Of a DNA stretch of 64,000 bases, positions 12,236-61,439 are shown one piece after another. The stretch's first letter is position 1; each line of letters starts with the position of its first letter. The notes beneath the pieces were generated by a model. That model ran no database searches. It was not told the DNA's origin and worked only from the letters and a program-made list of their open reading frames with translations. A program made the translations under genes and the position numbers. Location: sequence record PV400810.1; one strand, 5' to 3'. The DNA comes from Pseudomonas phage vB_PaeM_GXNNA8.

Positions 12236-12256
12236 CTGATGATGTAGATTTGAAAT
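12236..12256 (-). promoter_or_regulatory. conserved promoter-like motif (AAATCTACATCATCAG in gene orientation)
   Basis: Weakest family member. Sits between the terminator at 12291..12323 and the gene 11593..12153. Confidence 0.35.
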
Positions 12257-12290
12257 TCACTGGAATTGAAATGAGGTACGAAGGAGAGGT

Positions 12291-12323
12291 AAACTACCCA
12301 GTGGGCTAGCCCACTGGGTAGTT
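12291..12323 (-). terminator. hairpin terminator after 12331..12966
   Basis: Perfect palindrome aaactacccagtgggc-tagc-ccactgggtagtt. Confidence 0.65.
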
Positions 12324-12330
12324 ATCTGGC

Positions 12331-12966
12331 TTACGGTTGGGGTTCGGGTTCAGGCTGAGTGATTTCTTTGAATTCCAGACGACCGTAGTCAGTTTCCGGA
12401 ATCTCGATGATCGGAGCCTTACCAATTTCGTACACGAGCTCGCCGCGGGTGAACGGGTTGGTGGTTACCTTGAGCACCTTGGCGGTGGCGGTGTCGACAT
12501 CGGCGTCGTCCAGGACGTATTCGAAGTTGGCCTTGAACAGCGCCAGGGCGTCGGCGGCTTGGGTTTCAGTGGTGGTGGTGGAAGCCAGCACCAGGCCCAC
12601 GCGTTGAACCGCTTCTTCGCCTTCACCGACCAGGTAAACGTAGGCACCCGGGGTGGTCTGCTCGGCCAGTTGGTCTTCGCCGGTCAGAGGAGCACCTTTG
12701 TTCACCACCACGAAGGCGAACGGAGTGTTGATGTTTGCCGGGAGCCATTTTTGTTCGACACCCTTGAAGTTGCGGCTCACAGAGGTGACCGTGGCGCTTT
12801 GCAGCTCGGGGTTGGTACCGTCGGCGGTGATATCGGAGATCGTGATGTCCGCGAGGGTCAGGCCGTCAAAGAGAGCGAGCATTTCTGCGTCGTCTTTGTA
12901 GCGGTCTTTGTTGAACTCGACGAATTTGTCGAGAAAGATCGTTTGGATTGGAAGGTTTGAAGCCAT
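12331..12966 (-). CDS. abundant virion-type protein (paralogue of 63..644); atypically GC-rich codons
   Basis: N-terminus MASNLPIQTIFLDKFVEFNKDRY...LTLADITISD aligns with ORF 63..644. Strong SD (AAGAGGA). Terminator downstream. G/C-ending codons are visibly enriched compared with neighbouring genes. Confidence 0.7.
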   Translation of the reverse strand: MASNLPIQTIFLDKFVEFNKDRYKDDAEMLALFDGLTLADITISDITADGTNPELQSATVTSVSRNFKGVEQKWLPANINTPFAFVVVNKGAPLTGEDQLAEQTTPGAYVYLVGEGEEAVQRVGLVLASTTTTETQAADALALFKANFEYVLDDADVDTATAKVLKVTTNPFTRGELVYEIGKAPIIEIPETDYGRLEFKEITQPEPEPQP

Positions 12967-13077
12967 TGCTTTATCCTCTTAAAGGTGGTCCAATGGGAGT
13001 AAGTCAAAAGAAGTTACAAGACTCACTGCATAGGATGTCTACCTCCTTCAAATGCTTCGTCATCCATCGATTTCCTT

Positions 13078-13119
13078 AAAAAAAAAATAAAGGAGTAGGG
13101 GTCTTCCCCCTACTCCTTT
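13078..13119 (-). terminator. rho-independent terminator of the chaperonin gene
   Basis: Hairpin aaaggagtagggg-tcttc-cccctactccttt followed on the minus strand by a 10-nt T-run. Confidence 0.7.
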
Positions 13120-13128
13120 ACAAACCCC

Positions 13129-14811
13129 TTACCGCACCTTAACCGCCGACAACTTCTCCCCTAGGATCAGTGTCTTCGTAGTGGCCAAGATCTTAGCGGT
13201 TTGGAGTCCGCCTTTCAGCGCAGTGATAGAGGCATACGCGGTGTCATAAATACCCAATCCCTCCGGGGTACCAATCTCACCAGTTGCCAGATTCATGACG
13301 GTCGGCGTATTGAGCCAATCATCATTAAAATGGAAACTCCCATTTTCCTTATACAGTGACGTGTCCTTGAACAACAGCTTATGCTGAATAGTGGACAGCC
13401 GCATCAACTCATTGGCAACGCCTGAGTTGATATACCGCTTAGCAAACTCAGCGCTCTGGTCTTTATCTTCGAGGCCTTCCTTGATCGTACCGAAGACCGC
13501 CTTAACCAGGGATACACCACCGCCAGGAAGGATACCGTTCTCCAAGGCGGAGCGAATGGCTTTCACCACATCCTCGTACCGGTCTACCCGTTCCTTGACT
13601 TCAGAATAGGTTTCACCGCCTACGGAAATGGTGATCAACTTACCCCGTAGGGTCCGAATACGCCGTTCGTTGTACCGGGCGCGTACGGAGAACTTATCGC
13701 TGAGGCTAAACCCCTCCAACAGTTCCTCAATACCCCGAGCATGTTGTTCGATCCGGTCTTCATCCTTAGGTGTGGTACTCTTCAGGATAGACCGATTCCC
13801 CCCCAGTTCCAGTTGGCCGTGTTGGCCATTGATCGAATGGGCATCCAACTTGGTCAGGTCCGCTACGTCACTGAGCATAGGGGCGTTCAGCATGACCGCG
13901 ATGTCTTGCAGTTCGGAAGTCCCAATTGCACCACCTACCGGCGTACTCAACGGAATCAACCAAGGGCGCCCATCTTCTACCAGGGTTGGGTGCGCCGCAT
14001 TCAATTGCATCAGGGTCGAGTTAGCGGCTTCTTCGAAACTTCGTGCAATCAGCAGGATGGGAAGGGTCAGGTGTTGTTTGTGAGTTTTCACAAGGTGATT
14101 CACCCCATCAATCAACTTCTGGGTGTCTTCCTTGTCAATCCGACGATCGATAACGAACGCCGTAAACCCTGTTAATTCTGTCACACCCCCTTGATGGCCT
14201 TTCGCAAACCAGGGATTCGCGTAGAACATACGGATGGTACGCCCTGTGGTTTGTTCGATCTGGTCTTCGAAGTTGACCCCTTCCTTGAGTTCAATATCCG
14301 GATAACTCCCTTTATTCTTCGCATAGAGGTCGCTGACCAGTCGGGCGAGCTTTTCATCCTGGTTAGACGAGGTCAGTGCCACTTGATACAACCGAGGGTC
14401 ATCCACTTCCACTCGTATCGCCATGGATTCCAAACGTTGGATAACCCGCTCTACCAGGTCTTCAATGTTCCGGTGGTGTTGGAAGCCTGGGAAGTCCTTG
14501 AACAGGTGATAGAGCGCATGGGTCAGCATGATGGTGGTGGTAGTGCCATCCCCGCATTCCTCATCGGTCTTCGTAGCCGGCTCGGTAATTACCCGGTTCA
14601 CCAATTCATGGGCTTCATCTGCAAAGCGAATGGAACGGGCTACCGTCACCCCATCCTTGGTGGTCTTGGTGGAGACCCCATTCTTGATCATCACCAACTG
14701 ACCATTCGGACCCATGGTCGAAGTGACGGCGTCATACACCTCACTCAAGACCTGTTTAATAATCCCTTGGGCTTCTTCACCATGTACCAGCAGCGTTTGA
14801 GACATCTTCAT
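13129..14811 (-). CDS. groEL: GroEL-like chaperonin (phage-encoded Hsp60 family)
   Basis: GroEL signature blocks: MGPNGQLVMI (compare LGPKGRNVVL), TKDGVTVARSI, CGDGTTTTIMLT (compare AGDGTTTATVLA), GGGVSLV near the C-terminus. 560 aa. No GGM tail. Confidence 0.9.
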   Translation of the reverse strand: MKMSQTLLVHGEEAQGIIKQVLSEVYDAVTSTMGPNGQLVMIKNGVSTKTTKDGVTVARSIRFADEAHELVNRVITEPATKTDEECGDGTTTTIMLTHALYHLFKDFPGFQHHRNIEDLVERVIQRLESMAIRVEVDDPRLYQVALTSSNQDEKLARLVSDLYAKNKGSYPDIELKEGVNFEDQIEQTTGRTIRMFYANPWFAKGHQGGVTELTGFTAFVIDRRIDKEDTQKLIDGVNHLVKTHKQHLTLPILLIARSFEEAANSTLMQLNAAHPTLVEDGRPWLIPLSTPVGGAIGTSELQDIAVMLNAPMLSDVADLTKLDAHSINGQHGQLELGGNRSILKSTTPKDEDRIEQHARGIEELLEGFSLSDKFSVRARYNERRIRTLRGKLITISVGGETYSEVKERVDRYEDVVKAIRSALENGILPGGGVSLVKAVFGTIKEGLEDKDQSAEFAKRYINSGVANELMRLSTIQHKLLFKDTSLYKENGSFHFNDDWLNTPTVMNLATGEIGTPEGLGIYDTAYASITALKGGLQTAKILATTKTLILGEKLSAVKVR

Positions 14812-14847
14812 ACTCCTGTTAAACCATACCTAATTGCATTACACCTG

Positions 14848-14866
14848 GGTAATATAGGTTTATTAA
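14848..14866 (-). promoter_or_regulatory. conserved promoter-like motif (AAACCTAtATTAcc in gene orientation) upstream of the chaperonin gene
   Basis: Member of the 7-copy motif family. About 35-55 nt upstream of the start codon. Confidence 0.45.
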
Positions 14867-14869
14867 TTT

Positions 14870-15574
14870 CTACTGGGGATCGGGAAGAACGTCCTCAGAG
14901 GGTGTGTCACTCTGGAGCTCCTGGGGTTTATCCCAACCTAAGACCTTGCATTGCTTACGAAGACTCTTGATCTTAACCTGAGCCTCCTTCAAATAGGTCA
15001 CCAGGCATTGGAGAGCGCTGAGTTGAACTTCTAACAGCGCTTTGTTAAAGACCATCCCATCATTGTGGTGAATGTTCATCCACATCACAATGGTCCGGTG
15101 ACAATCCCCAACGCAGAACCTACCTGCCTTATCCTGGTCGATGAAATAGAAATAATGCCCCGTGAAGGGCGCTTCAATGTTCTCAGGGTTGAGCCACTGT
15201 CGCTTATAGACGGGTTCCTTTAGGGGTTTCTTCGGGTTATTGAGGACCTTTCTGAACGCCTTGCAATACTCCCGTACGCCCTGCTCCAGTAGATTGAGCT
15301 TATTGAAGAACAACACCAATTCAGGATCATTATCGTGCGAATGTAACCGAACAGTGATGTTCTCCATGTGGATATTGAAACGACCCGTCCAAAAGGTGGT
15401 GGGGGGATAGGCTAAAGGACTGACACTCATGGAGTAGAACACCGCGTCACCCCCAGTCCATTCCTCTTTACCCTCACCACCCTGGTCGCATAACCACCCT
15501 CTTCCATATTCCAACAACGATTGTCTTGACATAACCACCTCATAACAAATAAAGGACATACACCCTCCTGCCAA
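14870..15574 (-). CDS. hypothetical protein
   Basis: 234-aa ORF. Start uncertain (internal Met MSRQSLLEY possible). Confidence 0.45.
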   Translation of the reverse strand: MAGGCMSFICYEVVMSRQSLLEYGRGWLCDQGGEGKEEWTGGDAVFYSMSVSPLAYPPTTFWTGRFNIHMENITVRLHSHDNDPELVLFFNKLNLLEQGVREYCKAFRKVLNNPKKPLKEPVYKRQWLNPENIEAPFTGHYFYFIDQDKAGRFCVGDCHRTIVMWMNIHHNDGMVFNKALLEVQLSALQCLVTYLKEAQVKIKSLRKQCKVLGWDKPQELQSDTPSEDVLPDPQ

Positions 15575-15589
15575 TAAGGCAGGAGGGTG
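15561..15589 (-). terminator. hairpin terminator after 15599..15859
   Basis: 12-bp stem caccctcctgcc-aataa-ggcaggagggtg. T-rich tail on the minus strand. Confidence 0.55.
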
Positions 15590-15598
15590 GGTCGTTAG

Positions 15599-15859: not shown

Positions 15860-15930
15860 TCAGGTTCCTTATAGGTCATTAACGATTGAGTTGTCATTCC
15901 GAGGTAAAGAATAGGAGCGGGTGTTCGGAA

Positions 15931-20980: not shown

Positions 20981-21027
20981 GAGGTGTTACTCCTTTGGGT
21001 TAAACAATGATCGTGTCGCTCATTCAT

Positions 21028-21048: not shown

Positions 21049-21123
21049 ATAAATACGTTTTAAACTAAAAGAAATAAACACCCACCACCCCAACTCCTTT
21101 TACAGAGTGGGGTGGTTAGGCGG

Positions 21124-22717: not shown

Positions 22718-22723
22718 TACACA

Positions 22724-22743: not shown

Positions 22744-22761
22744 AAAAATAGAGAACGAATA

Positions 22762-22795
22762 CCCAACTACGAGGGAATAACCCCTCGTAGTTGGG
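22762..22795 (-). terminator. rho-independent terminator after 22809..23471
   Basis: 14-bp stem cccaactacgaggg-aataa-cccctcgtagttggg. T-rich tail on the minus strand. Confidence 0.6.
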
Positions 22796-22808
22796 CGCCG
22801 TCAGTCGA

Positions 22809-23471
22809 TTAACTGAGTTTAATCATGAAAGATCCGTTTTCTCCATCGACTTCGTAGCTGACATCAAAGACCTTGTTACCGTCTTTGTCATTTACAACCG
22901 ACAGGGTCTTTTTCATCAGGGGGATGAACGCTTCAGGTTGTTCCGGGTATTGGAACACGTCCTTCCAAGCGGGTGGGTTCCTCTCCTGAACCGGGAAGAA
23001 CGAAGAGAGAGGGAGAGGGTACACAGAACCACACACCGCATTCGAAGAGATATCCGAATGTTGCAAGGGTATCTCCTTGCCCAGACCATGTAGGATAAAT
23101 TTATCCCCATCGAGATCCGAGCGGACCATCGAACCGAGCAACACATGCGTGGGGATTTCGAACCGAGCACCAATCAACACCCGACCGTCGTCATACACGA
23201 AGCTTTTGAACACAAGTTTGATGAACCCGTAGATCGTAAAAACCCCGGGTTGTAGGGAAAGCTGCTTTAATCCGGGTTTACCGATGTTACTCCATATCAC
23301 CTTGCACTGGTCGAATTCCAACTGCTTACCGACCCACTCGGCATCACCAAACTGAGTGACGTACTCAACCAGAGCCTTCTGTGTACGGGTCAGTATGGTG
23401 TTGGCCAGCGCACCTCTGGTACTCCAGAACTTTACAGCGGAAATGAGGCGTTCTTTCGAATTGTAGGACAC
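22809..23471 (-). CDS. hypothetical protein
   Basis: Track ORF extends to 23558, which runs into the upstream terminator hairpin. The GTG at 23471 (MSYNSKERLI...) has an AAGGA SD. Confidence 0.5.
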   Translation of the reverse strand: MSYNSKERLISAVKFWSTRGALANTILTRTQKALVEYVTQFGDAEWVGKQLEFDQCKVIWSNIGKPGLKQLSLQPGVFTIYGFIKLVFKSFVYDDGRVLIGARFEIPTHVLLGSMVRSDLDGDKFILHGLGKEIPLQHSDISSNAVCGSVYPLPLSSFFPVQERNPPAWKDVFQYPEQPEAFIPLMKKTLSVVNDKDGNKVFDVSYEVDGENGSFMIKLS

Positions 23472-23527
23472 GGCACTTTTCCTTTCAGGGGTTTGGAGTG
23501 AGAGCGAATAAAATCGCCCTCGGGTTA

Positions 23528-23573
23528 CGGAATAACAGCGACAGAGACCTCCCTCCATCGCTGTTATTCCGTA
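23528..23573 (-). terminator. hairpin terminator after 23578..24792
   Basis: Perfect 14-bp stem cggaataacagcga ... tcgctgttattccg. Confidence 0.6.
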
Positions 23574-23577
23574 TCGA

Positions 23578-24792: not shown

Positions 24793-24861
24793 CTTGATAA
24801 CCCTTTTCTGTCTTTAGAAGGGAAAGTCACTTACCTGCAAACAATCCCGTTGTCTATTCAC

Positions 24862-24914: not shown

Positions 24915-24946
24915 CCTACCCCTACCCTGTCAAGGGTAGGGGTAGT
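24915..24946 (-). terminator. hairpin after the 2H phosphoesterase gene
   Basis: 12-bp stem cctacccctaccc-tgtcaa-gggtaggggtagt. Weak U-tract. Confidence 0.45.
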
Positions 24947-25380: not shown

Positions 25381-25412
25381 TCCACTTATCCCGAAAAAAA
25401 ATAGAGAGAACA

Positions 25413-25443
25413 GGGTGGTTAGCTTGTATACTAACCACCCCCC
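25413..25443 (-). terminator. terminator after the DHH gene and small ORF
   Basis: 10-bp stem gggtggttag-cttgtatac-taaccaccc. An 8-nt T-run lies about 11 nt further downstream on the minus strand. Confidence 0.55.
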
Positions 25444-27384: not shown

Positions 27385-27464
27385 TCGTTAACCTCCCTTT
27401 TACAAGTAAGTAGACAATTAAACCCTTACTCTCCAGGTAATCCTGGAGAGTAAGGTACTGCGTA

Positions 27465-32078: not shown

Positions 32079-32094
32079 TAGAGGTATTCCTTGC

Positions 32095-35699: not shown

Positions 35700-38570
35700 T
35701 TAATCAATGATGTCACGTCGGGTAAAGAAGGTGTTAACCCCCAAGTTCCCGTCATCCACAAAGGTGGGAATAGCCGTACCCCGACGGGTAGAACTCACCA
35801 CATGACCACCCATCACGATGTACGAATGATCGATGGTAAGAATCCCGTTCGTTGCAATCCCAAAGAGGACTTCCGAGTTATTGACCTCTCGGCGTACGGG
35901 AGACCCCAACCCTACCAACGCATCCCCTTGGCGTACCAAATAACAGTACGTCGTTCCGGTAGGGTTGACCTTAATGGGGTATTCCTTATCCAGGATATAC
36001 GCACGACCCCTTATAACCACCCTGGATCGAGCAGGGATGCTCACCCAGCCGCTTTCATTTACGTCGTACGGATCCACCACCCCCGCTCCGCCGACCTCCA
36101 ACAGATTCGTGGAGTAGCCGGTGTTAGCAGGGTCGTACTGGTAGATTCCCTTCCGAGGGATCAAGACAGGTGGGTGAACTTCGTTCACCGTATCAAAGGG
36201 TGATGACGCCGTATACAGTTTCGCTGGATTGACCCGTCCTACGGTGTAGGTGGGTGTAAACGGGTAATCCGTGATTTTGAAACTGATATCCCCGTAGAGG
36301 TCCCCAAAGGGTCGACTGACCACAACCGCCCATTCATACCGTTGGGTTTCAATCACTTGGACATCCACGTAGGTCATCCACGGGTTATCACCGGAATGGG
36401 AATAGCGGTACGCGCCCGGTACGACCATACCTGCTGGGGTAACCGGTTTAGTAACGAAGCCCGTAGCGGAGGGGAAGTTCAGCCTAAAGACCCCACCACT
36501 CACCGTATACGGAACCACAGCAGCCTCTGCGTAACACATCCCATCGGTAATCACGACCAACGCGAAGTTATCCGCGACAGCAAAGACGTTGATCACACTT
36601 TCCCTGAGGGCGTTGTTGACTTGAGGGTTCGCGATGGCTGCACGAGCCAGAATACCCCCACTGGCGGCTTGCAGGGTAATCAAGCTGGTTGGGGAGAGTT
36701 TGACCTCAGCGCCCAACTGGACTCGTCCATTCGCCAGGGCGATTGAAGCATACCCGGTATACTGGTTATCCGGTGTGAAACACAGGGCGTTGATACTGAC
36801 TCCATCCACCAGCAGGCTAGCAAACGACGCCATAGCTCTAGGGATACGGGTCAACTCCCGATTAATAATCCCAACATCCGCTGGAACAATACCGAACTTA
36901 TTCCCAGTGGTTACACCCACAATGGAGGTGTTCGACCAGGTCAACTCACTCCACTCATACAACCCGGTTTCACTGTCAACGGAATAAGCCAGATACCGCG
37001 TGGTACCAGCGGTGTGTTCAATGGGGAATAAGCGATCAGGAACCGGCCCAAACGGGCTATGGCGTGACGGAGGATAAAACTCTGTACGAACTTCATCCAT
37101 CCCCACTTCAGCCCGTTCTCCCAACACCCATTCCCTCAAGCCTTTATGGGGGGTGGTAAATCGCTTAACCCGTAGACCGTTCTTCGTGGCGACCGCTTTA
37201 ACCACTTCCCCTGACTTCAGAACGACCCCGGGATACCAGGTCGGATTATTGAAATCCCAGGTGTTCGCGTACCGCAGCCATTTAGCATCGGCGGTGGGTA
37301 GCATATTCGGTTGAATAATGTCCTTGGCCAAATTACCCAGTTGGGTAAAGGTTGCCGTCCCTCCATTCTCCAAGGTACCCGGGGCAATGGATTCCACGAA
37401 GGAGAGGTTATACGGTCGGCGAATACCCCCTTGGACCACATTCACCGGAATAACGACAAAGAGGTAGATTTCCCGGTCTTGAATGTTCCAGAAGAGGGCT
37501 GTGGTGGGTTGCAGTCCTCCATTCATCTCCAGGGTCTGACCTGCACTCAGGGTCACAAAGTCATTAATGTCGTACGAATGACTCCCGTTAGCCGGTCCGG
37601 TATACGGTGCCTTATTGATTTGAGTAAACCGGGCGGTGTACGACGCAGTCACCTGCTCCACCAAAGTGGGATCGGTTTCCAGGAAGTTCACGTTGAAGAA
37701 ATAGTGCTTTAGGGTCAGAACCGTACCGACTCGGTCCCAGCTAATCCCCAGCCCTTTATACACCGCCGTGCTATACCCTTGATACAGCAGGAAGTTCGCA
37801 TTACTGGGGGTTAATGGGAGGGTGTTCTTGAACTCGTAGATCTTCTTCTCAGCCAGGGGTTTAAAGAAGGCTACTTTGCCCGAACTGGTAAACCCTCCTA
37901 CCGCATTCCAATTCCGTCCAGTGTAATACGCGTTGAGGTTCTGAATCTCCGAGAACTGTGTTCCCCCTGCGTTCGCCAGAGAACCAGACAGGAAGGCTGT
38001 GTACCGTTGGTAACGAGACGGATCGGTAACCGGAGACAACACCAGACGGTCATTGTTGATCATCATCCCGACATTCAGAGAGTACCCAAAATAACGAATG
38101 GGTTGAATCACTGTTGGAGCAACCACCGGGTATTCATCCGGGTTGTAGAACGACGAGAATTGGAACACGTCATTGGGTTGATAATCCGCACCGTTATAAC
38201 CGACGTTGTTGGTTACAACCGCAGCGCGAGCACCGTGAGGGGTCACATACGCCAACACAGGCGTTAGAGACTGTTGTTCCGCCAGGGTAGCCGTCCGGTA
38301 GTTGTCCTTAAGACCCAATCCAATCGTCAGTTTGGTTTCACCGTGGACCGCCCCCCGGGAATTGATGTGGGCGTCAATGGGGACAATGGCTTGGTTAATG
38401 AAATCATTCAGGTTTGCGTTGAACAACCGGATCTTTTCTTTAGTCCCCTCATTGTAGCTGTGAACACACGCTTCCAGTTTGTAGGTCATCTCATTGAGCT
38501 TGGAGATCACTCCACCGAACCTGGGTTCAGGGTTTTCGATGAAAGGGGGTTCCCCGCCAAGGATAATCAT
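35700..38570 (-). CDS. tail-fibre family protein (956 aa)
   Basis: N-terminal fibre motif HINSRGAVHGETKLTIGLGLKDNYRTATLAEQ (H..H..TK..GLG..N type). Long beta-rich body. Confidence 0.7.
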   Translation of the reverse strand: MIILGGEPPFIENPEPRFGGVISKLNEMTYKLEACVHSYNEGTKEKIRLFNANLNDFINQAIVPIDAHINSRGAVHGETKLTIGLGLKDNYRTATLAEQQSLTPVLAYVTPHGARAAVVTNNVGYNGADYQPNDVFQFSSFYNPDEYPVVAPTVIQPIRYFGYSLNVGMMINNDRLVLSPVTDPSRYQRYTAFLSGSLANAGGTQFSEIQNLNAYYTGRNWNAVGGFTSSGKVAFFKPLAEKKIYEFKNTLPLTPSNANFLLYQGYSTAVYKGLGISWDRVGTVLTLKHYFFNVNFLETDPTLVEQVTASYTARFTQINKAPYTGPANGSHSYDINDFVTLSAGQTLEMNGGLQPTTALFWNIQDREIYLFVVIPVNVVQGGIRRPYNLSFVESIAPGTLENGGTATFTQLGNLAKDIIQPNMLPTADAKWLRYANTWDFNNPTWYPGVVLKSGEVVKAVATKNGLRVKRFTTPHKGLREWVLGERAEVGMDEVRTEFYPPSRHSPFGPVPDRLFPIEHTAGTTRYLAYSVDSETGLYEWSELTWSNTSIVGVTTGNKFGIVPADVGIINRELTRIPRAMASFASLLVDGVSINALCFTPDNQYTGYASIALANGRVQLGAEVKLSPTSLITLQAASGGILARAAIANPQVNNALRESVINVFAVADNFALVVITDGMCYAEAAVVPYTVSGGVFRLNFPSATGFVTKPVTPAGMVVPGAYRYSHSGDNPWMTYVDVQVIETQRYEWAVVVSRPFGDLYGDISFKITDYPFTPTYTVGRVNPAKLYTASSPFDTVNEVHPPVLIPRKGIYQYDPANTGYSTNLLEVGGAGVVDPYDVNESGWVSIPARSRVVIRGRAYILDKEYPIKVNPTGTTYCYLVRQGDALVGLGSPVRREVNNSEVLFGIATNGILTIDHSYIVMGGHVVSSTRRGTAIPTFVDDGNLGVNTFFTRRDIID

Positions 38571-38619: not shown

Positions 38620-41600
38620 TTAAGGTAAAAGTTCCGAGGCTTTCAAGAAGCTAAACGTACCTTCATCCTGCGGTAAACCAGAACTCACCGGAATAATCCC
38701 TCCCGTCCGTGTGTAACTTAATAGGAACTCACCGATGGTAAAGACTTTCTGCCGGGTAATACTGGCGATCTGGTTGGTGTTCGTCACGGCGGTTGCGACA
38801 TGCAGCAACTCACTGGAACGCCGCAGTTTAACATCGGAGACAATATACCGCCCTTCCGACTCTTCAACCGTCGCATAGATGTAGAACGTTTTGTTACGAG
38901 GATTCGAGGACACATTCCTCAAGTCGATAGACCCACCGGGCATTTTGTACACGGTACCGTTGATCATCATCTCGACTTCTTCTTGGAAGAAAATCGTCCA
39001 ACCCACTTCCGGGTAACAGGAACCAATCAGATACGTGTTCGCTCCGATCTTCCCTACATACCCCGCACCGCCAGTGTCCTCAAAGACGTAGCCTTGCTGT
39101 TGGGTAATTAACCCGGCTTTAGGAATGGCGTGGTTCTGCACGCACCACGCCGCGGACATTCCTTCCCCGTTGTTAAAAGGTGTAACACTGGAGAATTTCT
39201 GAGTGGTCTTATTAAGGCTGAAAGTCAGGACTGCTTTGTTGAACCCCAAGGCGTCGCCTCGGACGTTGTACAACGACGAAATACGCCCGGAGAGGGTATT
39301 CGTTGCTTCATCCACATAAAGCGACACTTGAGGACACGCCACAACATCCGCTTCTGTGTCACTCCACTCATCCCCAGCCCCACTGTTGTTCACCGTGGTG
39401 ATAAATGCGGTTTGATCAAGAATCGTAAGGTCATCAATCGGGTAGACCCCCGAGACTGGATTACCAATCACCGGTGCACAGGCCAACAGTTTACTCTTGA
39501 CCACATACCGACCCCCTTCGATGTCCCGGGTATGAACCAACACCAGCACGTAGTTCATCCGACTGAACCCTTTACCACTGACGGGATTGATCACCATCAA
39601 CTCAACCGCCCATTTCTCCCTGAGGGTATCGGGGATCAACTGGATCAGTTTATCCATGACGTTACGCTTAACACCCCAATGGCTTTCACCCTTCAGAGTA
39701 AAGGTTTGATCCCCAGCGTCCATTACCCGACTGAAGGTCCTAGGGCAGGATAACACGATCCCATTTCCTTTAGGGGCTTTAAAGGTAAACTCCCGAGGGC
39801 ATGTGGTATCGGATTCAACCCCTGAGGCCAGGTCGTCGAAATGGTTCATTCCCATTACAGAGAAACAACTGTTCCCCATTTCAATCCCTTCAGCGGTCAG
39901 GAACGCTGCACTCCCGGTTACACTGATCAGGGAAGTATTACGATCTAACCGGTTCTCGTACACCTCCGCACTGATCGGTCGAGCCGATAAGGTGGGGTAG
40001 TTGCTGTTGGTAATCCCAGGACGGACGGCGTATTCACCGCTGACCTTCCGGTAAAAAAACGACCGATTATTGTCCACAGCGCTGTCTGCCCAGAAATACT
40101 CCCCGGCAAGTTCATACCCCACTGCACTGACTCGCCCCCCGTTCTTGATAGGGTAACTGGGTGTTTCCCATTTTCCCACCCCCGAGAAGTTCGCATTGTC
40201 TGCGTGCATGTAATCCCGCAGCATCCCACTGGCGGTTACATTAGGGTTTTTGTTGAACTGCAAGCGACTAAACAACCCCGGGAAGGAGACCCTCAAGCCT
40301 AGACGTGACATCCCAACAATCACCTTATTCTCCAACAGGAGGTGACTGGAGTGATCAGAGATGTTGAAGAAGACGTCACTAATGCCTGCATAATGCACAG
40401 AGGCCGTTGAATTTTTGCTGATGATCTTGCTCAGATCAACGGTCTGTACGGGGGGTTGTTTAACCACTACGAAGGTCGCGGTTTCAGGGTTGAAATCGTA
40501 ACTGCAATCGATGTACACCCCGGTTACACGGTCCACCCCGTTGATGTTCCCAGTAAAGAACATCATCCCGAAGTAATGCATGGAACAATATTGAGGTCCT
40601 ATGTCACTGGTTTCAGAGAAGAACATCAGGGGACGTCGTTGGGATCCCTTAACCCCTTTCTTGGCCTTATAAGGCGCAAAGGTAATGGGGCCGTAGGTAC
40701 TGAATTCACCGTCTGGAGGAGCAGGGGTGAACTCAATGTAGTCAACATTGCTCTGTAAGGCCCCTGGGACGTTCGTCAGTGAGACTTTAACCCGACTGAA
40801 GGTAAGAGGCTGCCCATTCTTAATCGCGCTGAGAGGGGCCCTGTAGGCCCGTGTACGGCTATGCCCCCAACCACCCCATTGACCTTCAGTTATAGCTGTC
40901 ACAAACAAGTAGACCCAATTACCCAACGTGTGTATTTGACTCCACTCCGTTAGGCGAACCGACGTCCCCAGATCTTGGATAGCCAAATCAATGTTACACT
41001 TCACAAACACATGCGCGGAAGGATCCAGTGTGCCATTGGTCAGCGCCGCGTACACCTGGTTCGTCCCATCCCGGGTTACCATGATGATAGTCCGACCACT
41101 CCCTGTAAAGACCCGGTTAGGTACGAAGCCAATGGCCGTTAACGACGGGGGTTGGTATTTATACCCGGTGAAGGAAACGTCAGGATTCAGACTCAAATGA
41201 TTCCGAACCACGGTGTAATACAACCCTTCCGTCCGTCCGTCGTAATGAGCCCGAATAAAGACCAGGTTATCATTCAGTTCCAATACCGCTGCGCAGTCAG
41301 GAGTAACACCCCCTAACCCTTCAAACGAACCACTAATACCCGGAGGGATATAATCCGTTCCTCCAAATCGACTAATGGCAATAATCCCTGAACGCATGGA
41401 AGCCGACGTATCCGGTGTATACCCCCTGACCAGTTCCTTAACACCCAGCGTGGTACTGAAGAGGTTATCAGCCGTACCCGCCTTATCCTGTTCGGGAGTA
41501 GCTGTAGCAAAGTTATCCAGATTGCCCAGGTTAAGGTTGGTCTTCGTTTGGAGGTGAGGGGCGTTGTAATTCTTGTCGTGTTCGACAAGACGACGCATCT

Positions 41601-42201
41601 GGGCGTCACGGAAGTTCCTGAGCTTCGTAAACGCCTCATTGATCACAACTTCCGATTGATCCTCTAGCTCTGGATCTCGGCTCCGGTAAATGTTCGCCAT
41701 GGTGTCCAGGAAGAACGTCAGCTCATACCAATCCCCAATTTCGGTATCGGCTTTATGCAAATGGTATTCGGGAGGCAGAGTGGGTGGAACACCGAAGACC
41801 TTCTCCCACTCAATGGGAATCTTCCCTTCCCGCATTTTTTCCAGCCATTCATCCAGGTTATTACGCGGTACGAACCACGCCCCAATGGTTTGGTAGTCTC
41901 CGGTAACGAAAGCGTTGTTCTGACGAATACTCTCACTTAACCGAATGAAACAACAAACATTCCGACCGCTGATCTCACAGAACGGGATAAAGGCTTCCTC
42001 CAACCAGTAATCCCGGTTGAGGGTCATCTCAGCACCCCGTTCGTCATACAGCGTGAACAGGCCAGGTTCAGCAAAGAACGGGGACCCATTCGGGATCAAC
42101 CAAGGACAGGTCTTATCCTTGATCAGCATTTTCTCCCCGGTGATCTTATTCTCCGGGCGCGTTCCACGAATATCAAATTGAACGATTTTAAACGGATCCA
42201 T
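38620..42201 (-). CDS. tail-fibre family protein (1193 aa); paralogue of 42257..45811
   Basis: End-to-end similarity to the neighbouring gene. Conserved blocks: PFFAEPGLFTLY, PEYHLHK, LQTKTNLNLGNLDNFATAT, IPPGISGSFEGLGG, and a shared C-terminus ...SSGLPQDEGTFSFLKASELLP. Confidence 0.75.
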   Translation of the reverse strand: MDPFKIVQFDIRGTRPENKITGEKMLIKDKTCPWLIPNGSPFFAEPGLFTLYDERGAEMTLNRDYWLEEAFIPFCEISGRNVCCFIRLSESIRQNNAFVTGDYQTIGAWFVPRNNLDEWLEKMREGKIPIEWEKVFGVPPTLPPEYHLHKADTEIGDWYELTFFLDTMANIYRSRDPELEDQSEVVINEAFTKLRNFRDAQMRRLVEHDKNYNAPHLQTKTNLNLGNLDNFATATPEQDKAGTADNLFSTTLGVKELVRGYTPDTSASMRSGIIAISRFGGTDYIPPGISGSFEGLGGVTPDCAAVLELNDNLVFIRAHYDGRTEGLYYTVVRNHLSLNPDVSFTGYKYQPPSLTAIGFVPNRVFTGSGRTIIMVTRDGTNQVYAALTNGTLDPSAHVFVKCNIDLAIQDLGTSVRLTEWSQIHTLGNWVYLFVTAITEGQWGGWGHSRTRAYRAPLSAIKNGQPLTFSRVKVSLTNVPGALQSNVDYIEFTPAPPDGEFSTYGPITFAPYKAKKGVKGSQRRPLMFFSETSDIGPQYCSMHYFGMMFFTGNINGVDRVTGVYIDCSYDFNPETATFVVVKQPPVQTVDLSKIISKNSTASVHYAGISDVFFNISDHSSHLLLENKVIVGMSRLGLRVSFPGLFSRLQFNKNPNVTASGMLRDYMHADNANFSGVGKWETPSYPIKNGGRVSAVGYELAGEYFWADSAVDNNRSFFYRKVSGEYAVRPGITNSNYPTLSARPISAEVYENRLDRNTSLISVTGSAAFLTAEGIEMGNSCFSVMGMNHFDDLASGVESDTTCPREFTFKAPKGNGIVLSCPRTFSRVMDAGDQTFTLKGESHWGVKRNVMDKLIQLIPDTLREKWAVELMVINPVSGKGFSRMNYVLVLVHTRDIEGGRYVVKSKLLACAPVIGNPVSGVYPIDDLTILDQTAFITTVNNSGAGDEWSDTEADVVACPQVSLYVDEATNTLSGRISSLYNVRGDALGFNKAVLTFSLNKTTQKFSSVTPFNNGEGMSAAWCVQNHAIPKAGLITQQQGYVFEDTGGAGYVGKIGANTYLIGSCYPEVGWTIFFQEEVEMMINGTVYKMPGGSIDLRNVSSNPRNKTFYIYATVEESEGRYIVSDVKLRRSSELLHVATAVTNTNQIASITRQKVFTIGEFLLSYTRTGGIIPVSSGLPQDEGTFSFLKASELLP

Positions 42202-42256: not shown

Positions 42257-45200
42257 TTACGGAAGCATTTCAGAAGAACGTAACCACGGGAGTTGACCTT
42301 CAGCATTCACCAAGCCTGACGACGCCGGGATGCAGTTCCCCCGTTTCGTCTCGGAGATCCGGTTCCCGTTAATCGTAAAGACATTAAACCGTTCAATGGT
42401 GAGGATCTGACGGTCATTCGTAACGGCTCGTCCGACCCACACAATAAACGGTGTCTCAGCTCGTTTCTCCAAAGTCACTTCGTAGCTCGCATTCCCGTTC
42501 TTAAGAACTGCGTACAAATAGAACGTCTTATTAGCGGGATTAGGGACTATTGCCGACAAATCCACGGAGATGGTCTTCAACGTGTAGTTCTGTCCGTTGA
42601 AGACCACCCTGAGTTCCGATTGGAAGAACAAGTACCAACCGGTAGCGGGGTAAACCGATCCCAACAAGGGGTTATTCACCGACCCTTCAAAGATCGTAGC
42701 GGCTCCCCCAGTGGAAACGTTGTACGCCATTTGGTTAGCTACCCCGTTATCCGGCGTAACGGTCTTGTGGTTAGCACCCCCACTTTGACCGGTAATACCA
42801 GGTATACATTCAGTCCACCGTTTCGTACTACGGTTCGTATACCGGAACGTCCCAAACGAGGTGAGTGAGTCTCCTGGACCTGCTGCAATGACCCCACTGT
42901 CAATAAAGCCTTCCAACTCGGTGGCACTCTTGAGGTAATACCCTACCCTCATCGCTCCCCCACCCGATGTGTTAGCTCCCCCGCCCAGGAAAGCATCCCA
43001 ACTCGCAGGTGTCAACCCAGTAGCACCCTGCGGATGGACACCATGCACCACATCCAGCACAGTATAATCACTGACCACTCGGGCATTGACGGGTCCGGTA
43101 TAAACCGGGTCGATGACCAAGATTGTCCAGTGACGAGACGTGGTGCCAGGTTCTCCGTAGTTGATGATCATTATCACCGGTAACCAACCGAACTTATCGG
43201 TCAGGAAACCAGTGGGATCACACAGCCCGATAAACATCGCGGGGGAGTTTCTACAGGCAGTCGGATTGGCGACATGGTTTACAAACCGAGCTGTAATGGA
43301 CGATGGGTAGAGAATAGTCCCCGTAGGTACCATGGTCATCGAACCATCCGGATTGATCTGCTGGGTATGTCCTGACATAACCTTGATGTCTTGAGGAAGA
43401 TTACCAGCGGGCCATTCCCCTTCTGCTTTCGACAGGTCTAGGTTCACTTTCTGCGTTCCCATACAGAAGGTGAATTCCCCCAAGTCTGTGTTGTACTGAT
43501 CCAACAGGTTAGAAGGAACTGTCACATAAGCTCCACCCACCTGAGGAGGTCCTTCCACTCGGAAGACCGCGTTACTCAGAGGACGAGAAACAACCTTGTT
43601 GAAGAAGAGGTTAGAGACTTCAGGACGCTCCGCTAACTTCCCAGGGGACTGCCGGTACCACAGTTGGTTGGTAATAACACTCGGTAGGGTATTGGTCCCC
43701 GCGGTATACACGTCCCCTCCATTACCCAACAAGAAGGAACGCGGTTTGATCGAGGAAGCAATCGGGCTGGTAATTTTCTCCGCAATGAGTTGCTGGTTTT
43801 CAATATCCCCTAAGTCGGTCATCCACGTCCGGTTCATGACGTCATACCGGGACTTGAACGACCTGGGTACTACGTAGAAGGCTGACCGGGGGAACGACTG
43901 ATAGGCACCATAGGACGCCACAATCGTCCCATCATCCAGCACTTCCATGCCTTGTTCCGAATCGTTGAACACCAATTGGTTAAGGCGGCGGTTTTTTGGG
44001 TCGCCAGAGGACGGAATGTTCAGGAAATCGATTTCCCTTCGAGGTGTTTGATGGAGGAGGGTCATCACACCGGTTTCAGGGTCCATCTCATACACCATCT
44101 CTAGCGGGAGGTCCCAGGTACCTATTACTCCAGGAACCACGTACCGCCCCCACCAGGCCGCCATAAAGCGTACCAGGTATTTACCCGGCTTGTTCGGAAT
44201 AGGGCACACCGCCGTTGGCTGAGAACGGTAAATCCCCGTAAAGGCGAGGTTACTGCTTTGTTTAAAGGTAAAGTAATACCGTTCCCAGGTATCATTGTTA
44301 TTCACCCGCCGATACCCCTGAGGGGTACACCACCGGAAGAACGGTGCGTTATTCCATTGAACACCGTCACCGTCTTTAAAGGTGGGGCGCACCAACGTAG
44401 CGGTTACCGGGATCTGGGCGTTGACATCACTGGTTCTAACCCGGTACAGGTACCGATACCGGTAATCCGTTACACCATCAGCTTGTTCTCCATTCTCCAC
44501 GTTGTGGGCGTGGAAGATGTAGATCCAGTTCCCCAGATACGCCACGCTCAAACTTCTGAACCAAGTATTCCAGGAGAAGTTCGGATTGCCATTCCAGGGA
44601 GCCTTTAGCGCATCCAGGTTAATGGGGGTGAGAATGTGTTTAGTGGGATCCAAGGTACCATTGGTCAACCCAATGTAAAACAAGTTCTTGCGAATATCCC
44701 CCAGCATAATGACTTCACGTCCACTCCCTTGGACAATCCGATCACATTCCGCATTATCCGCTAAGAGCAGAGGGTGGGAATAGCGGTAACTGGTATAGAC
44801 TAACCGGGGGTTGGTATAGGGATCTTCCAGAACCGAGTAATACAGTCCGTCAATACGACCATCCATTCGGTTAGACAGAAAGACGATGCTGCCATCTGCT
44901 TCCATGGTAATGGCTGCACATTCACTCTTACCCCCCAAGCCTTCAAAGGATCCATCAATAGACGGGGGAATGAAGTTCGTGTTACCGAATTGAGCAATGG
45001 GAAGTTTACCGTTCTCAATGAAGTCCTTGGGATTAAAGCCATAGTGGTCAATAATGGCTTGAAGTCCCGATACCGTGAGGTGACGGTCACGTCTACCTTC
45101 CAAGGCACCGGAAGCGGTAGCGGTGGGGAAGTTGTCTACTTTCTCCAATCCCACTTGCAAGGCCGTCAGTCCGTGGCTGTTATAACTCGCTTTATGACGA

Positions 45201-45811
45201 GCCAAGAAATCAGCCAGTGACTTCTTGTAAATCCCCAGGTAATGATTGAACAGTTCAAACGCATGGTCAATCTTAATCTGAAGGTACGGTTTCCCATGCG
45301 TTTCAACCGCGTCAGAGATCATCCCCAAGACTTCAACAAAGTCACCAAAGGCCATGATGTCGTAGAGTAGGCTGTGAGTATGCCACTCCGGTGGGAAGAC
45401 CACGGGTTTGTTCTTGATGTTCTCCCACCAGACCGGACGGTCATCTTCAGAGGCGGCAATCACCATGTGGAGCAGGGTGGTATCAAACAGGCTGAATTCC
45501 CCTACCACATCGTAATCCAACTTCCCTTCGGTAATCGTAGGGTCCAGCAGTTCGATCATACACGCAACTTTCTGAGCGGTGAGTTCCGTCAACCGAGGCA
45601 TCAAGCGATAAATACGGTACTGGGACTCGTCCATGGGTTGACCGTTCGGGAACGTCACTTTCAGGCTGTCTACAAAGAACGGACTGTGGATAGGCACAAT
45701 AATCCGGGACCAGATTCCTGGATCGACTTTAAACGGTTCACCTCGAATTTGGTTCTCCAGGTTATTGTGAACAATATCGGTTTTGTATTCCCGGACGATT
45801 GGAAAATGCAT
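42257..45811 (-). CDS. tail-fibre family protein (1184 aa)
   Basis: PEWHTHSLLYD, TALQVGLEKVDNFPTATASG, IPPSIDGSFEGLGG. C-terminus ...SSGLVNAEGQLPWLRSSEMLP. Confidence 0.75.
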   Translation of the reverse strand: MHFPIVREYKTDIVHNNLENQIRGEPFKVDPGIWSRIIVPIHSPFFVDSLKVTFPNGQPMDESQYRIYRLMPRLTELTAQKVACMIELLDPTITEGKLDYDVVGEFSLFDTTLLHMVIAASEDDRPVWWENIKNKPVVFPPEWHTHSLLYDIMAFGDFVEVLGMISDAVETHGKPYLQIKIDHAFELFNHYLGIYKKSLADFLARHKASYNSHGLTALQVGLEKVDNFPTATASGALEGRRDRHLTVSGLQAIIDHYGFNPKDFIENGKLPIAQFGNTNFIPPSIDGSFEGLGGKSECAAITMEADGSIVFLSNRMDGRIDGLYYSVLEDPYTNPRLVYTSYRYSHPLLLADNAECDRIVQGSGREVIMLGDIRKNLFYIGLTNGTLDPTKHILTPINLDALKAPWNGNPNFSWNTWFRSLSVAYLGNWIYIFHAHNVENGEQADGVTDYRYRYLYRVRTSDVNAQIPVTATLVRPTFKDGDGVQWNNAPFFRWCTPQGYRRVNNNDTWERYYFTFKQSSNLAFTGIYRSQPTAVCPIPNKPGKYLVRFMAAWWGRYVVPGVIGTWDLPLEMVYEMDPETGVMTLLHQTPRREIDFLNIPSSGDPKNRRLNQLVFNDSEQGMEVLDDGTIVASYGAYQSFPRSAFYVVPRSFKSRYDVMNRTWMTDLGDIENQQLIAEKITSPIASSIKPRSFLLGNGGDVYTAGTNTLPSVITNQLWYRQSPGKLAERPEVSNLFFNKVVSRPLSNAVFRVEGPPQVGGAYVTVPSNLLDQYNTDLGEFTFCMGTQKVNLDLSKAEGEWPAGNLPQDIKVMSGHTQQINPDGSMTMVPTGTILYPSSITARFVNHVANPTACRNSPAMFIGLCDPTGFLTDKFGWLPVIMIINYGEPGTTSRHWTILVIDPVYTGPVNARVVSDYTVLDVVHGVHPQGATGLTPASWDAFLGGGANTSGGGAMRVGYYLKSATELEGFIDSGVIAAGPGDSLTSFGTFRYTNRSTKRWTECIPGITGQSGGANHKTVTPDNGVANQMAYNVSTGGAATIFEGSVNNPLLGSVYPATGWYLFFQSELRVVFNGQNYTLKTISVDLSAIVPNPANKTFYLYAVLKNGNASYEVTLEKRAETPFIVWVGRAVTNDRQILTIERFNVFTINGNRISETKRGNCIPASSGLVNAEGQLPWLRSSEMLP

Positions 45812-58222: not shown

Positions 58223-58233
58223 GATTGACGTCC

Positions 58234-59259: not shown

Positions 59260-59392
59260 TCTCGGTAGCTTAAAGGCTAAACGGCTTATTAAGCAAACCG
59301 CCCGGGTTCTACCGAAAACCCGTTTAAGAAGGGTTGGAGACTACACGTGTGATTTAACGGCGTTTACGTGAGTCCCCTCCTTCACGCAGGGG

Positions 59393-59896
59393 TTATTCCT
59401 TTAAAGACAGAGTGGAGTGGTCTTCAGGTTCAGGGGCATGCAGTACTTCAATGCAACGAAAGACAGCGAATGTAGCGTTATTCTCCGCCCTTAACCTTTT
59501 AGCTTCCGTAATAGCTTTTGCTCTGGAGGAATGTCGGTAAGGTCGAGGTGACATATACACGACACCATTTTCACCTACCCTCCCAATAACGTAACGTCCA
59601 ATCGGGTTGGTATAGTGTTCTTGAGTGACGTTATTTTGGAACAGTACGTTATTGTGATAAAATTTGAACCCTCTGAACATCCAGAGGGTTCTCTTATCTT
59701 TGTATTTCCCTTCCTGGTCCTTCTCCAGGTAGATCTCCGCTTTGTTTGTACCCATCACTGGCTGAAGATGTTTTTTCTTCATATGAAACTCAAACTCTTC
59801 ACGCAGATTGAGTTTCATATCCTCAGTAACCTTACGGTGATCGTTAGGAGAAGGGGGAGGTGTTTCATTTTGAATTATTCGATCGGTCACTTTCAC
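59393..59896 (-). CDS. hypothetical protein
   Basis: 167-aa ORF. Confidence 0.5.
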   Translation of the reverse strand: MKVTDRIIQNETPPPSPNDHRKVTEDMKLNLREEFEFHMKKKHLQPVMGTNKAEIYLEKDQEGKYKDKRTLWMFRGFKFYHNNVLFQNNVTQEHYTNPIGRYVIGRVGENGVVYMSPRPYRHSSRAKAITEAKRLRAENNATFAVFRCIEVLHAPEPEDHSTLSLKE

Positions 59897-60651
59897 ACCT
59901 CCGGGTCGTCGTAATCGTCTTCATAACGGTCATCAAACGACCTGTTGTATTCGAATGCTTCGATCCTGGCCTGACGTTCAGCTTCCTTACGCCGGCTGGT
60001 GCGCGCACGCGGCAGACAACGGTTGAAGATCTTGCGGAACTTCTTCTTACTGATGAGATAATGGCAGTAAGCACCATCACCACAGGAGGTTGCCTGACGA
60101 ATGATATCACCGCACATCAGCGAAATCAACTTATCCATATCGATCAGATGAGTGGCGAAGTTATTTTTATTAACCTCTTCCAATTTTCCGTAGATGAAAT
60201 GATAGATCGAGTCGATGTAGTAGTAGTTGGGGTGTTTGTTGATGGGAAGGTGGGTGTCAGGATCCAGGGGGTGGGTGGCTCTGGTTTTCCACAGACTGTC
60301 CTCCACGTCATTCTCCTCAGCACGGAGAGGACCATCCCCCCGTTTAATGATCTTGCGCGCCCAGTGGACGTTAATCGCCGCACGGTCCTTTAGAACAGCC
60401 ACCCAACTGTCCGGCCCATTGGGGACTACACCCTCCACTTCCGCTTCGAACGTTGCGTACCGCTGACCAGGAAACTCACGTTCGTCCTCTTTCAGAAAAC
60501 GCTGGGTTGGGGACTCGAACACCGCGATCGTTCCTTTGGGGAAGTGGGCAGCGCCAAAGGGACATTCGCGTTTCTTTTCTTTACGATTCTGGATGACCCA
60601 TTCCAGTCGGTCTTTACTGAGACGTCCAACAGGTACACGAAAAGGTTTCAT
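59893..60651 (-). CDS. hypothetical protein with Cys cluster (possible metal-binding)
   Basis: MCGDIIRQATSCGDGAYCHYL and an N-terminal CPFGAAHF. Confidence 0.5.
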   Translation of the reverse strand: MKPFRVPVGRLSKDRLEWVIQNRKEKKRECPFGAAHFPKGTIAVFESPTQRFLKEDEREFPGQRYATFEAEVEGVVPNGPDSWVAVLKDRAAINVHWARKIIKRGDGPLRAEENDVEDSLWKTRATHPLDPDTHLPINKHPNYYYIDSIYHFIYGKLEEVNKNNFATHLIDMDKLISLMCGDIIRQATSCGDGAYCHYLISKKKFRKIFNRCLPRARTSRRKEAERQARIEAFEYNRSFDDRYEDDYDDPEV

Positions 60652-60837
60652 AATACTATCCTTCTGTTTAACAGATTGTTTAACAACGGTTTAGTGGAGA
60701 TTCTCAACGAAGTGAATATCCCACTGGGTGTATTGGGTTTCCCGCATGAAGAGTTCAACCGCTTCTATCAAGGTCATTTGGTGGGGGGCTTCCCAAGTGT
60801 CCTTGTTGTAACACGTGAATTTCCAAAACATGACCAA

Positions 60838-61392
60838 TTACCCCTGTGCTAGTTCATGAAGACGTCCAGCTGCTTTGAGTTTACGGATTTCACTGATCGA
60901 CTTACCGTATTTAGCGGCGAGTTCCCTGACCGTCCCTTCCGGAGCCGGTTTATTCGCAAAGCAGAACTTTTTGGGTGTTTCTTCTCGGCTGACACTCTGG
61001 GAGTGATCAGGGAAACGTCGACTGAGGTCTTCCAGGAATTCCTTAGCTTTGGTGATGTAAACCTTAAGGTAGGCGTGGCCTTCCGAGATATCACTTTCAG
61101 TCAATCGTTGTAACACAACCCTTTCTACGATTCCCTTGGCGGCACTGCCTTCAGTATCGTAGATCATTTTATTTATCAGTCCAACCGCATAACCATTTAT
61201 TGACTCTCCATAACCCTCTATTGACTCTCCAGAGGGCACACTCTTGAAACTGTGCAGCATGTGCTTCAAGTAGATAACATCACCAGTGTGCCCTGTTTCC
61301 ATCAGGAATAACGCCACTTCAAATCCGTTGTAACACCCCAGATCCTCTTGACGAGCAACGTCGAGTTCTTCCATTTGTTTTTCAGTAAACAT
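60838..61392 (-). CDS. putative DNA-binding protein (C-terminal helix-turn-helix)
   Basis: C-terminus TVRELAAKYGKSISEIRKLKAAGRL. Preceded by the promoter-like motif. Confidence 0.5.
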   Translation of the reverse strand: MFTEKQMEELDVARQEDLGCYNGFEVALFLMETGHTGDVIYLKHMLHSFKSVPSGESIEGYGESINGYAVGLINKMIYDTEGSAAKGIVERVVLQRLTESDISEGHAYLKVYITKAKEFLEDLSRRFPDHSQSVSREETPKKFCFANKPAPEGTVRELAAKYGKSISEIRKLKAAGRLHELAQG

Positions 61393-61416
61393 TGGTTTAT
61401 TCCTCGTGGCTTAATA

Positions 61417-61439
61417 CATCAATAATCTAGGTTTAAAAT
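61417..61439 (-). promoter_or_regulatory. conserved promoter-like motif (ttttAAACCTAGATTATTGATg in gene orientation)
   Basis: Motif family member. Sits between the terminator at 61458..61491 and the gene start at 61392. Confidence 0.45.

Follow-up and report, generated by a model that had tools for sequence, protein, structure and literature searches.

Candidate early promoters in an EL-type jumbo phage of Pseudomonas and their likeness to promoters of virion RNA polymerases

The early promoters of phage phiKZ are read by a virion RNA polymerase (RNAP) and have a TATATTAC core; 28-32 of them have been mapped (PMC8244752, PMC10914365, PMC7598289), and differential RNA sequencing (dRNA-seq) described the motif as an extended -10 box together with a T-rich element upstream of -19 (PMC8244752). 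The early virion-RNAP promoter of phage AR9 is AAATATATATTAT-(6N)-G+1, and transcription in phiKZ and phiR1-37 also begins 6 nt past the consensus (PMC5312081). Conservation at -10, -20 and -30 was reported for the early promoters of 201phi2-1 (PMC11512511). According to a 2020 review, every RNAP-encoding jumbo phage has a bioinformatically detectable motif upstream of its presumed early operons, and in each phage with profiled transcripts this motif was the early promoter (PMC7598289). Here a similar element is described in a 64,000-nt stretch of Pseudomonas phage vB_PaeM_GXNNA8 (PV400810.1), called the window below and marked by a w before positions. Seven copies of the element are present on the minus strand of the window, and these are very probably early-class promoters of an EL-type chimallivirus, read by the virion RNAP. 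By homology with phiKZ and AR9, we infer a transcription start at a conserved G, an early timing and the virion RNAP as the enzyme.

In a megablast search, w20000-34000 matched eight phages of Pseudomonas with identities of 96.6-97.3%; one of the eight is phage EL (AJ697969 / NC_007623; genus Elvirus). Judged by sequence, GXNNA8 is an EL-type chimallivirus, that is, a phiKZ-like jumbo phage close to Pseudomonas phage EL. The window is the reverse complement of about EL 99.9-163.8 kb, and what was called the minus strand is therefore the main coding strand of EL. The EL record carries nine 19-nt features named 'putative phage promoter', whose sequences give ATTTTAAACCTACATTATT, and the EL consensus WTTTYAAACCTACATTATY is printed in Table 2 of PMC7058600, which attributes it to the 2005 EL genome paper. 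The motif is this published EL promoter consensus, and the finding was both correct and already known. New are three weaker copies in the window that carry no annotation in EL (w14866, w22744 and w24883), about nine more copies across the EL genome, the predicted +1 G, and a conservation of position across genera. The annotated EL 19-mer ends before the conserved GTG and +1 G of the present analysis.

The copies were scored with a 27-nt weight matrix built only from sites non-homologous to the window, namely 11 other EL sites and five sites of Erwinia phage RisingSun. They are listed below and are named by their highest coordinate.

12230..12256, minus strand: promoter copy ATTTCAAATCTACATCATCAGTGTGAG, predicted +1 G at 12232, 32.6 bits
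14840..14866, minus strand: weaker promoter copy TTAATAAACCTATATTACCCAGGTGTA, a TATATTAC variant, predicted +1 G at 14842, 20.7 bits
21023..21049, minus strand: promoter copy TTCTCAAACCTACATTATTCATATGAA, predicted +1 G at 21025, 31.7 bits
22718..22744, minus strand: weaker promoter copy TTAATACACCTACATCATTCTTGTGTA, predicted +1 G at 22720, 18.4 bits
24857..24883, minus strand: weaker promoter copy GAAACAAACCTACATTACCAAGGTGAA, predicted +1 G at 24859, 20.4 bits
32092..32118, minus strand: promoter copy ATTTTAAACCTACATTATTCATTTGCA, the strongest consensus copy, predicted +1 G at 32094, 28.7 bits
61413..61439, minus strand: promoter copy ATTTTAAACCTAGATTATTGATGTATT, predicted +1 at 61415 (A), 21.2 bits

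All seven were found within 1-2 nt of the places given in the original prediction, and all on the minus strand. With the 17-mer at no more than three mismatches, four matches were obtained in the window against 0.12 expected, and none of 100 shuffles attained four. The count for the 12-mer at no more than two mismatches was not significant alone (8 versus 5.06 expected), so that the three weaker copies, first reported as w14848, w22724 and w24862, needed a better test. With the independent matrix the seven copies were the seven best matches in the window (18.4-32.6 bits), the next one scoring 10.7; at 16 bits or more, 7 matches were observed versus 0.08 expected from 200 dinucleotide-preserving shuffles. 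All seven are intergenic, though the coding fraction of the window is about 0.93, and all are co-oriented with the next gene. The ends of the 19-mers lie 21-84 nt from the first downstream start codon, inside the 10-90 nt that had been proposed. It had also been claimed that no copy stands upstream of the plus-strand structural genes. This holds, as no plus-strand match of 12 bits or more was found in the window with the same matrix, but it is incomplete: the motif is also absent from the minus-strand virion and tail genes at w35700-46565 (EL gp113-116, assigned with PHROGs). The distribution of the motif follows gene class rather than strand.

Four of the copies, w12256, w21049, w32118 and w61439, are homologues of the EL features at 151700-151718, 142913-142931, 132472-132490 and 103608-103626, respectively, and are identical to them over the 19-mer. 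Copy w12256 stands ahead of the gp148 homologue, which starts at 12153 or 12174, and of the gp148-152 block, and w21049 ahead of the gp132 homologue (start 20980), followed by the small hypothetical genes gp132-145. Copy w32118 overlaps the end (stop codon) of gp118, the SbcC-like gene before it, and is located ahead of gp119 (ATG 32078) and the gp119-126 block, which encodes DNA ligase, RNase H, a DHH phosphoesterase and RNA ligase. The hypothetical unit gp098-102 follows w61439, with the ATG of the gp098 homologue at 61392. The EL record contains no annotation at the positions of the other three copies. Of these, w14866 precedes the gene of a GroEL-like chaperonin (w13129-14811, EL gp146), w22744 the gp128 homologue (GTG start 22684; unit gp128-131), and w24883 the gp127 homologue (start 24792).

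A scan of the whole EL genome with a matrix from the nine annotated promoter sites gave 19 matches of at least 12 bits, 18 of them on the main coding strand. The set of EL sites carried forward (n = 18) consisted of 17 of these matches together with 139694, and all of its members are intergenic and sense by annotation. The other two strong matches, 94638(-) and 207962, both fall within genes and look fortuitous. None of the 18 sites precedes a gene whose annotation is virion, tail or head. Outside the region covered by the window, the motif in EL precedes genes for an HslV-like peptidase, for the PhuZ tubulin, and for the nuclear shell protein with an RNAP beta-like piece (gp023-024), as well as gp037-039 (two RNAP beta-like pieces), a unit with DNA polymerase and several series of small open reading frames (ORFs).

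In the aligned EL sites, positions C10, T11, A12, A14, T15 and A17 of the 19-mer were near-invariant, and the TAYATTAY block was nearly invariant in 19 EL sites and the seven window sites. A G is present exactly 6 nt past TAYATTAY in 18 of the 19 EL sites and 6 of the 7 window sites, usually as GTG; the column of this G lies outside the matrix by which the EL sites were selected. Counted from the predicted +1 G, TAYATTAY occupies -14 to -7 and AAACC -19 to -15, the 6-nt spacer between TAYATTAY and the G often ends in GT, and a T-rich block, (A/T)TTT(T/C), is found at -24 to -20. A weak A-G dinucleotide at about -29/-28 (19-mer columns -4/-3; A in 15 and G in 12 of 19 EL sites) carries the EL element into the '-30 region' reported as conserved in the early promoters of 201phi2-1 and phiKZ. 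The whole element is asymmetric and about 30 bp long. When 8-mers in gene-upstream DNA were compared with the whole EL genome, ACCTACAT, CTATATTA, TAAACCTA and TATATTAC were the most enriched after homopolymer T words. A division into two functional subclasses, TACATTAT and TATATTAC, was considered and dropped, as EL and RisingSun each contain the two variants ahead of similar types of gene and no basis to separate them was found.

The motif is conserved beyond GXNNA8. Among six Elvirus genomes compared at six sites, variation was seen in 6 of 162 columns of the motif and in 98 of 1034 columns of the flanks (p = 0.015, Fisher test), and the six changes in the motif are Y-to-Y, fall in the spacer, or are the T16A variant that is present at other EL sites. 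Two of the unannotated copies give the same picture: w22744 is invariant in the six genomes, and the changes in w24883 are confined to tolerated positions (T16A, Y18 and the spacer). This pattern suggests that the motif is under purifying selection within Elvirus. RisingSun belongs to a different genus, is not among the megablast nucleotide matches of w20000-34000, and has a chaperonin and a shell protein with 40% and 48% amino-acid identity, respectively, to those of EL. Four strong matches were found in 41.6 kb of its genome, all intergenic and sense and all with a G 6 nt downstream; one of them lies directly ahead of the orthologous chaperonin gene, and none is in the 15-kb cluster of virion genes. 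At the nuclear shell locus, the order virion protein (-), nuclear shell protein (+), RNAP subunit (+) is kept in EL, RisingSun, FishSpeaker, Miami, OBP and phiKZ, and each of the six has its best EL-matrix match 56-94 nt upstream of the shell gene. The shell gene of phiKZ was taken from the phiKZ annotation, since a tblastn search with the shell protein of EL gave no match in phiKZ; this gene, PHIKZ054, has a mapped primary transcription start site with the early motif (PMC8244752).

Recognition of the element by host sigma70 RNAP, native or phage-modified, would require TACATT to be the -10 hexamer and the upstream A/T-rich block to act as an UP-like element. TACATT and CATTAT each match TATAAT at 4 of 6 positions, and some phiKZ-related phages are sensitive to rifampicin (PMC5468394), while rifampicin data for EL were not found in the searchable literature. 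The element was nevertheless said from the start not to be a sigma70 -35/-10 pair, and the analysis bears this out: the EL sites have no conserved -35, with an information content of at most 0.36 bit at the columns expected for it, and the conserved AAACC sits in what would be the sigma70 spacer. A scan of w12000-31999 for sigma70-type promoters found no site at any motif copy, and only 4 sites in total versus 18.6 +/- 4.3 in dinucleotide shuffles. The element is shared by phages that infect Erwinia, Shewanella, Klebsiella and Pseudomonas; across these four host genera it follows the phage lineage and not the host. PhiKZ, which has a homologous element, develops independently of host RNAP (PMC7598289). 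With no conserved -35 and sigma70-like sites depleted, a sigma70 promoter was rejected, and we regard this explanation as very improbable. The depletion of sigma70-type sites in w12000-31999 is itself consistent with a phage that avoids initiation by host RNAP.

The original prediction of a phage-specific promoter class is supported by the phiKZ- and AR9-like architecture of the element. It read the core as TAcaTT, similar to a -10 and preceded by AAACC, with transcripts beginning a short way downstream. It had left the choice between a phage-modified host RNAP and a phage-encoded RNAP, of which the second is favored by this architecture and by the RNAP genes of the phage, and the first is disfavored. 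Eight RNAP beta/beta'-like pieces are encoded by EL: gp024, 038, 039, 044, 175, 184, 186 and 187. Pieces gp024 and gp038-039, syntenic with the phiKZ genes for the non-virion RNAP (nvRNAP), are downstream of copies of the motif. The gp184-187 cluster, from which the motif is absent, is syntenic with the phiKZ virion-RNAP genes gp178-180, including an insertion of an HNH endonuclease.

A mechanism on the lines of phiKZ can be proposed for these promoters. A multisubunit RNAP packaged in the virion would enter the cell with the DNA, recognize the element without a host sigma factor and initiate at the G, so that the non-structural early operons would be switched on immediately after infection. 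In the window these would be operons for small ORFs of the host-takeover type, for DNA ligase, RNase H and RNA ligase, and for the GroEL-like chaperonin; elsewhere in EL they would include those for the nuclear shell protein, PhuZ, the nvRNAP subunits and DNA polymerase. The injected enzyme would in this way transcribe the genes of the second enzyme, as in the phiKZ logic. Strong hairpin terminators would insulate most of the units, giving a layout of gene, terminator, promoter and gene.

Several observations weigh against reading the seven copies as early promoters of the virion RNAP. Transcript mapping, start sites, expression timing and rifampicin data for EL-type phages were not found in the searchable literature. 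Independence from host RNAP is not universal among phiKZ-related phages, because the Ralstonia phages PhiRSL2 and PhiRSF1 are rifampicin-sensitive (PMC5468394). The predicted +1 of w61439 at 61415 is an A in GXNNA8 (GATGTATT) versus a G in EL (GATGCGTT), and this is the sole copy of the seven without the G. The EL RNAP pieces are assigned to a virion and a non-virion set by their synteny with phiKZ, so the split is a putative one. Some of the downstream genes, those for DNA ligase, RNase H and the chaperonin, are not classic immediate-early functions. Finally, some nvRNAP genes of 201phi2-1 have no early promoter nearby (PMC11512511), and the content of the downstream genes is for this reason only a soft argument.

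A rival explanation is a promoter of the middle or continuous class, read by the nvRNAP that is made after infection and not by the injected enzyme. Several of the downstream genes (ligase, RNase H, DNA polymerase) serve replication and repair, which are middle-phase functions in many phages. Genes with both an early and a middle promoter are known in 201phi2-1 and phiKZ (PMC11512511, PMC8244752), and no expression timing for EL was found in the literature searched. The phiKZ middle promoters, however, have a weak AT-rich or TACT motif near -22 to -24, and the late ones a TATG at the start (PMC7598289, PMC8244752), and neither is like the extended -10 block with its strong conservation. Nearly every base of the EL motif agrees with the phiKZ early element, and the motif stands at the orthologous position ahead of the shell gene, where an early start site was mapped in phiKZ. 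It also precedes the RNAP pieces syntenic with nvRNAP genes, the expression of which must predate the nvRNAP. Reading by the nvRNAP is on balance improbable.

Hairpins upstream of the copies were found by RNA folding, and in five copies (w12256, w21049, w22744, w24883 and w61439) a perfect GC-rich stem of 12-16 bp is located 17-35 nt upstream:

12292..12323, minus strand: perfect GC-rich hairpin, 35 nt upstream of w12256
21085..21115, minus strand: GC-rich hairpin, then TGTTTATTTCTTTT, 35 nt upstream of w21049
22762..22795, minus strand: hairpin with a perfect 16-bp stem and then a T-rich tail, 17 nt upstream of w22744, the best terminator-like match
24916..24945, minus strand: 13-bp perfect hairpin, 32 nt upstream of w24883
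61458..61491, minus strand: hairpin with a perfect 15-bp stem, then TTTATTAC, 18 nt upstream of w61439

No hairpin was predicted upstream of w14866 and w32118. The claim that the copies sit after the hairpin terminator of the preceding gene is therefore true of five and fails for these two. By its predicted fold, the hairpin at 12292..12323 is likely an intrinsic terminator of the preceding gene; a compensatory double change from C-G to A-T among the Elvirus genomes preserves pairing in its stem. The hairpins resemble the conserved phiKZ terminator, a stem-loop followed by TTAT (PMC10914365). Further hairpins of the same family follow genes at 13087-13121, 15561-15589, 25412-25441 and 27424-27455 on the minus strand. 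The family has perfect, GC-rich stems of 12-16 bp, and TTTAT or a T-rich tail often comes after them.

The two copies without an upstream terminator would be transcribed by read-through, and an intergenic motif that is conserved and oriented could, in principle, work in the RNA. The element might then be no promoter at all, but a site of RNA processing or stability in polycistronic transcripts, or else a binding site for a DNA-binding regulator of the phage. Its features hardly fit such a role. The element has neither dyad symmetry nor a predicted structure of its own, and Rfam recognized no known structured RNA at the motif, its one match being a tRNA elsewhere. The spacing to the conserved G is fixed versus a variable 21-84 nt to the start codon. 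The strong terminators ahead of five of the seven copies mark places where a new initiation signal is needed. In phiKZ, AR9 and 201phi2-1, primary (5'-triphosphate) ends were mapped just downstream of the homologous elements (PMC8244752, PMC5312081, PMC11512511). We give a non-promoter signal almost no credence.

Some other features of the window and of its relatives were noted in passing. The spacer between the gp127 and gp128 homologues (window 22745-23577) is about 830 nt long here versus about 100 nt in EL, phiRU, PaBa1, MIZ-Pa99 and HHBS8_1. It contains an extra ORF of 249 amino acids (22809-23558, minus strand), next to the hairpin of w22744 and unrelated to the motif, for which no Pfam or PHROG family was matched. 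The enlargement looks like a strain-specific insertion immediately upstream of the terminator hairpin. A tRNA-Thr gene (anticodon CGT) was detected at window 62027-62102 on the minus strand by ARAGORN and by Rfam (69 bits). It falls between the homologues of EL ORF095 and ORF096, a gap in which the EL feature tables returned show no entry, and no copy of the promoter motif stands ahead of it. Among the virion and tail genes, gp115 and gp114 (38620-42201 and 42257-45811, minus strand) are adjacent genes of about 1190 amino acids whose products each match phrog_3573 over the full length and carry the same virion/tail-protein domains at the N-terminus, and gp116 (35700-38570, minus strand) has its N-terminal part in common with them. 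The gp114/gp115 region appears to hold tandem paralogous structural genes. In the public records, Pseudomonas phage MIZ-Pa99 (PV472050.1) carries the taxonomy line Pantevenvirales; Straboviridae, yet it is about 97% identical to the Elvirus EL across the region, and its taxonomy is probably a mis-assignment.

As a discovery the motif has little weight, the EL consensus having been available in GenBank and in print since 2005 and the promoter class being well described. Its modest added value lies in precise predictions of start sites for EL-type phages, and in a collection of promoter variants whose comparison could help to explain how a sigma-less virion RNAP recognizes DNA. One such variant concerns two bases, a C at -12 (TACATTAT) and, in AAACC, a near-invariant C at -15, both common to EL and the distant RisingSun genus and not found in phiKZ. 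As a tentative and rather doubtful suggestion, these bases might be specificity determinants that co-evolved with the virion RNAP of the EL type. If so, early promoters of the EL and phiKZ types would be mutually orthogonal, and a comparison of promoter variants with variants of the virion RNAP subunits across genera could locate the promoter-recognition determinant of this sigma-less enzyme.

The original prediction had suggested a comparison with the promoters of related jumbo phages or of T4-like phages. The T4-like phages turned out not to be relevant, and the element has the architecture of the early virion-RNAP promoters of phiKZ and AR9. With the bacterial sigma70 promoter it has in common an A/T-rich hexamer located some 7-14 nt ahead of the start; unlike that promoter, it has no -35, carries conserved bases in the would-be spacer and lacks a TG extension. 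Table 2 of PMC7058600 also lists predicted promoters of OBP, 201phi2-1, N1M2 and phiKZ (TATATTAC). Those of OBP, N1M2 and 201phi2-1 share the layout TTTYARR..ATATTAY..GTG with EL and differ from it in the lineage-specific bases that separate the T-rich block from the -10 box (PMC7058600 Table 2; PMC11512511). The OBP promoter was called early from its position, ahead of early and not of middle or late operons (PMC7058600 Table 2; PMC11512511).

The AR9 promoter resembles the EL element in its 3' half (TATATTAT), in the 6-nt spacer and in the start at G, and reading by an injected multisubunit RNAP would be a further likeness. AR9 differs from EL in its uracil-containing genome and Bacillus host, and in an upstream half of AT only, without the AAACC of the EL element. 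The phiKZ element is nearly identical to it in sequence, with ATTTTAAACAGTATATTAC-6N-G in phiKZ versus ATTTTAAACCTACATTATT-6N-G in EL. On the coding strand of phiKZ 1-50 kb, TATAT[TC]A[CT] occurs 13 times, 11 times in intergenic DNA and 12 times with a G 6 nt downstream, and one example, caaaccATTTTAAACAGTATATTACtaacttG, is almost superimposable on ATTTTAAACCTACATTATTcatttG of EL. Both phages have the T-rich block upstream of -19, the extended -10 box and the start 6 nt downstream, predicted in the case of EL. In both the element is intergenic, on the leading strand and often right after terminators, and it occupies the orthologous place ahead of the nuclear-shell gene. EL differs from phiKZ in a majority form with C at -12 (TACATTAT), in the conserved CC at -16/-15 and in a genome of about 49% GC. 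Its copies are fewer (about 18 versus about 30) and are known from sequence, whereas those of phiKZ are known from mapped starts.

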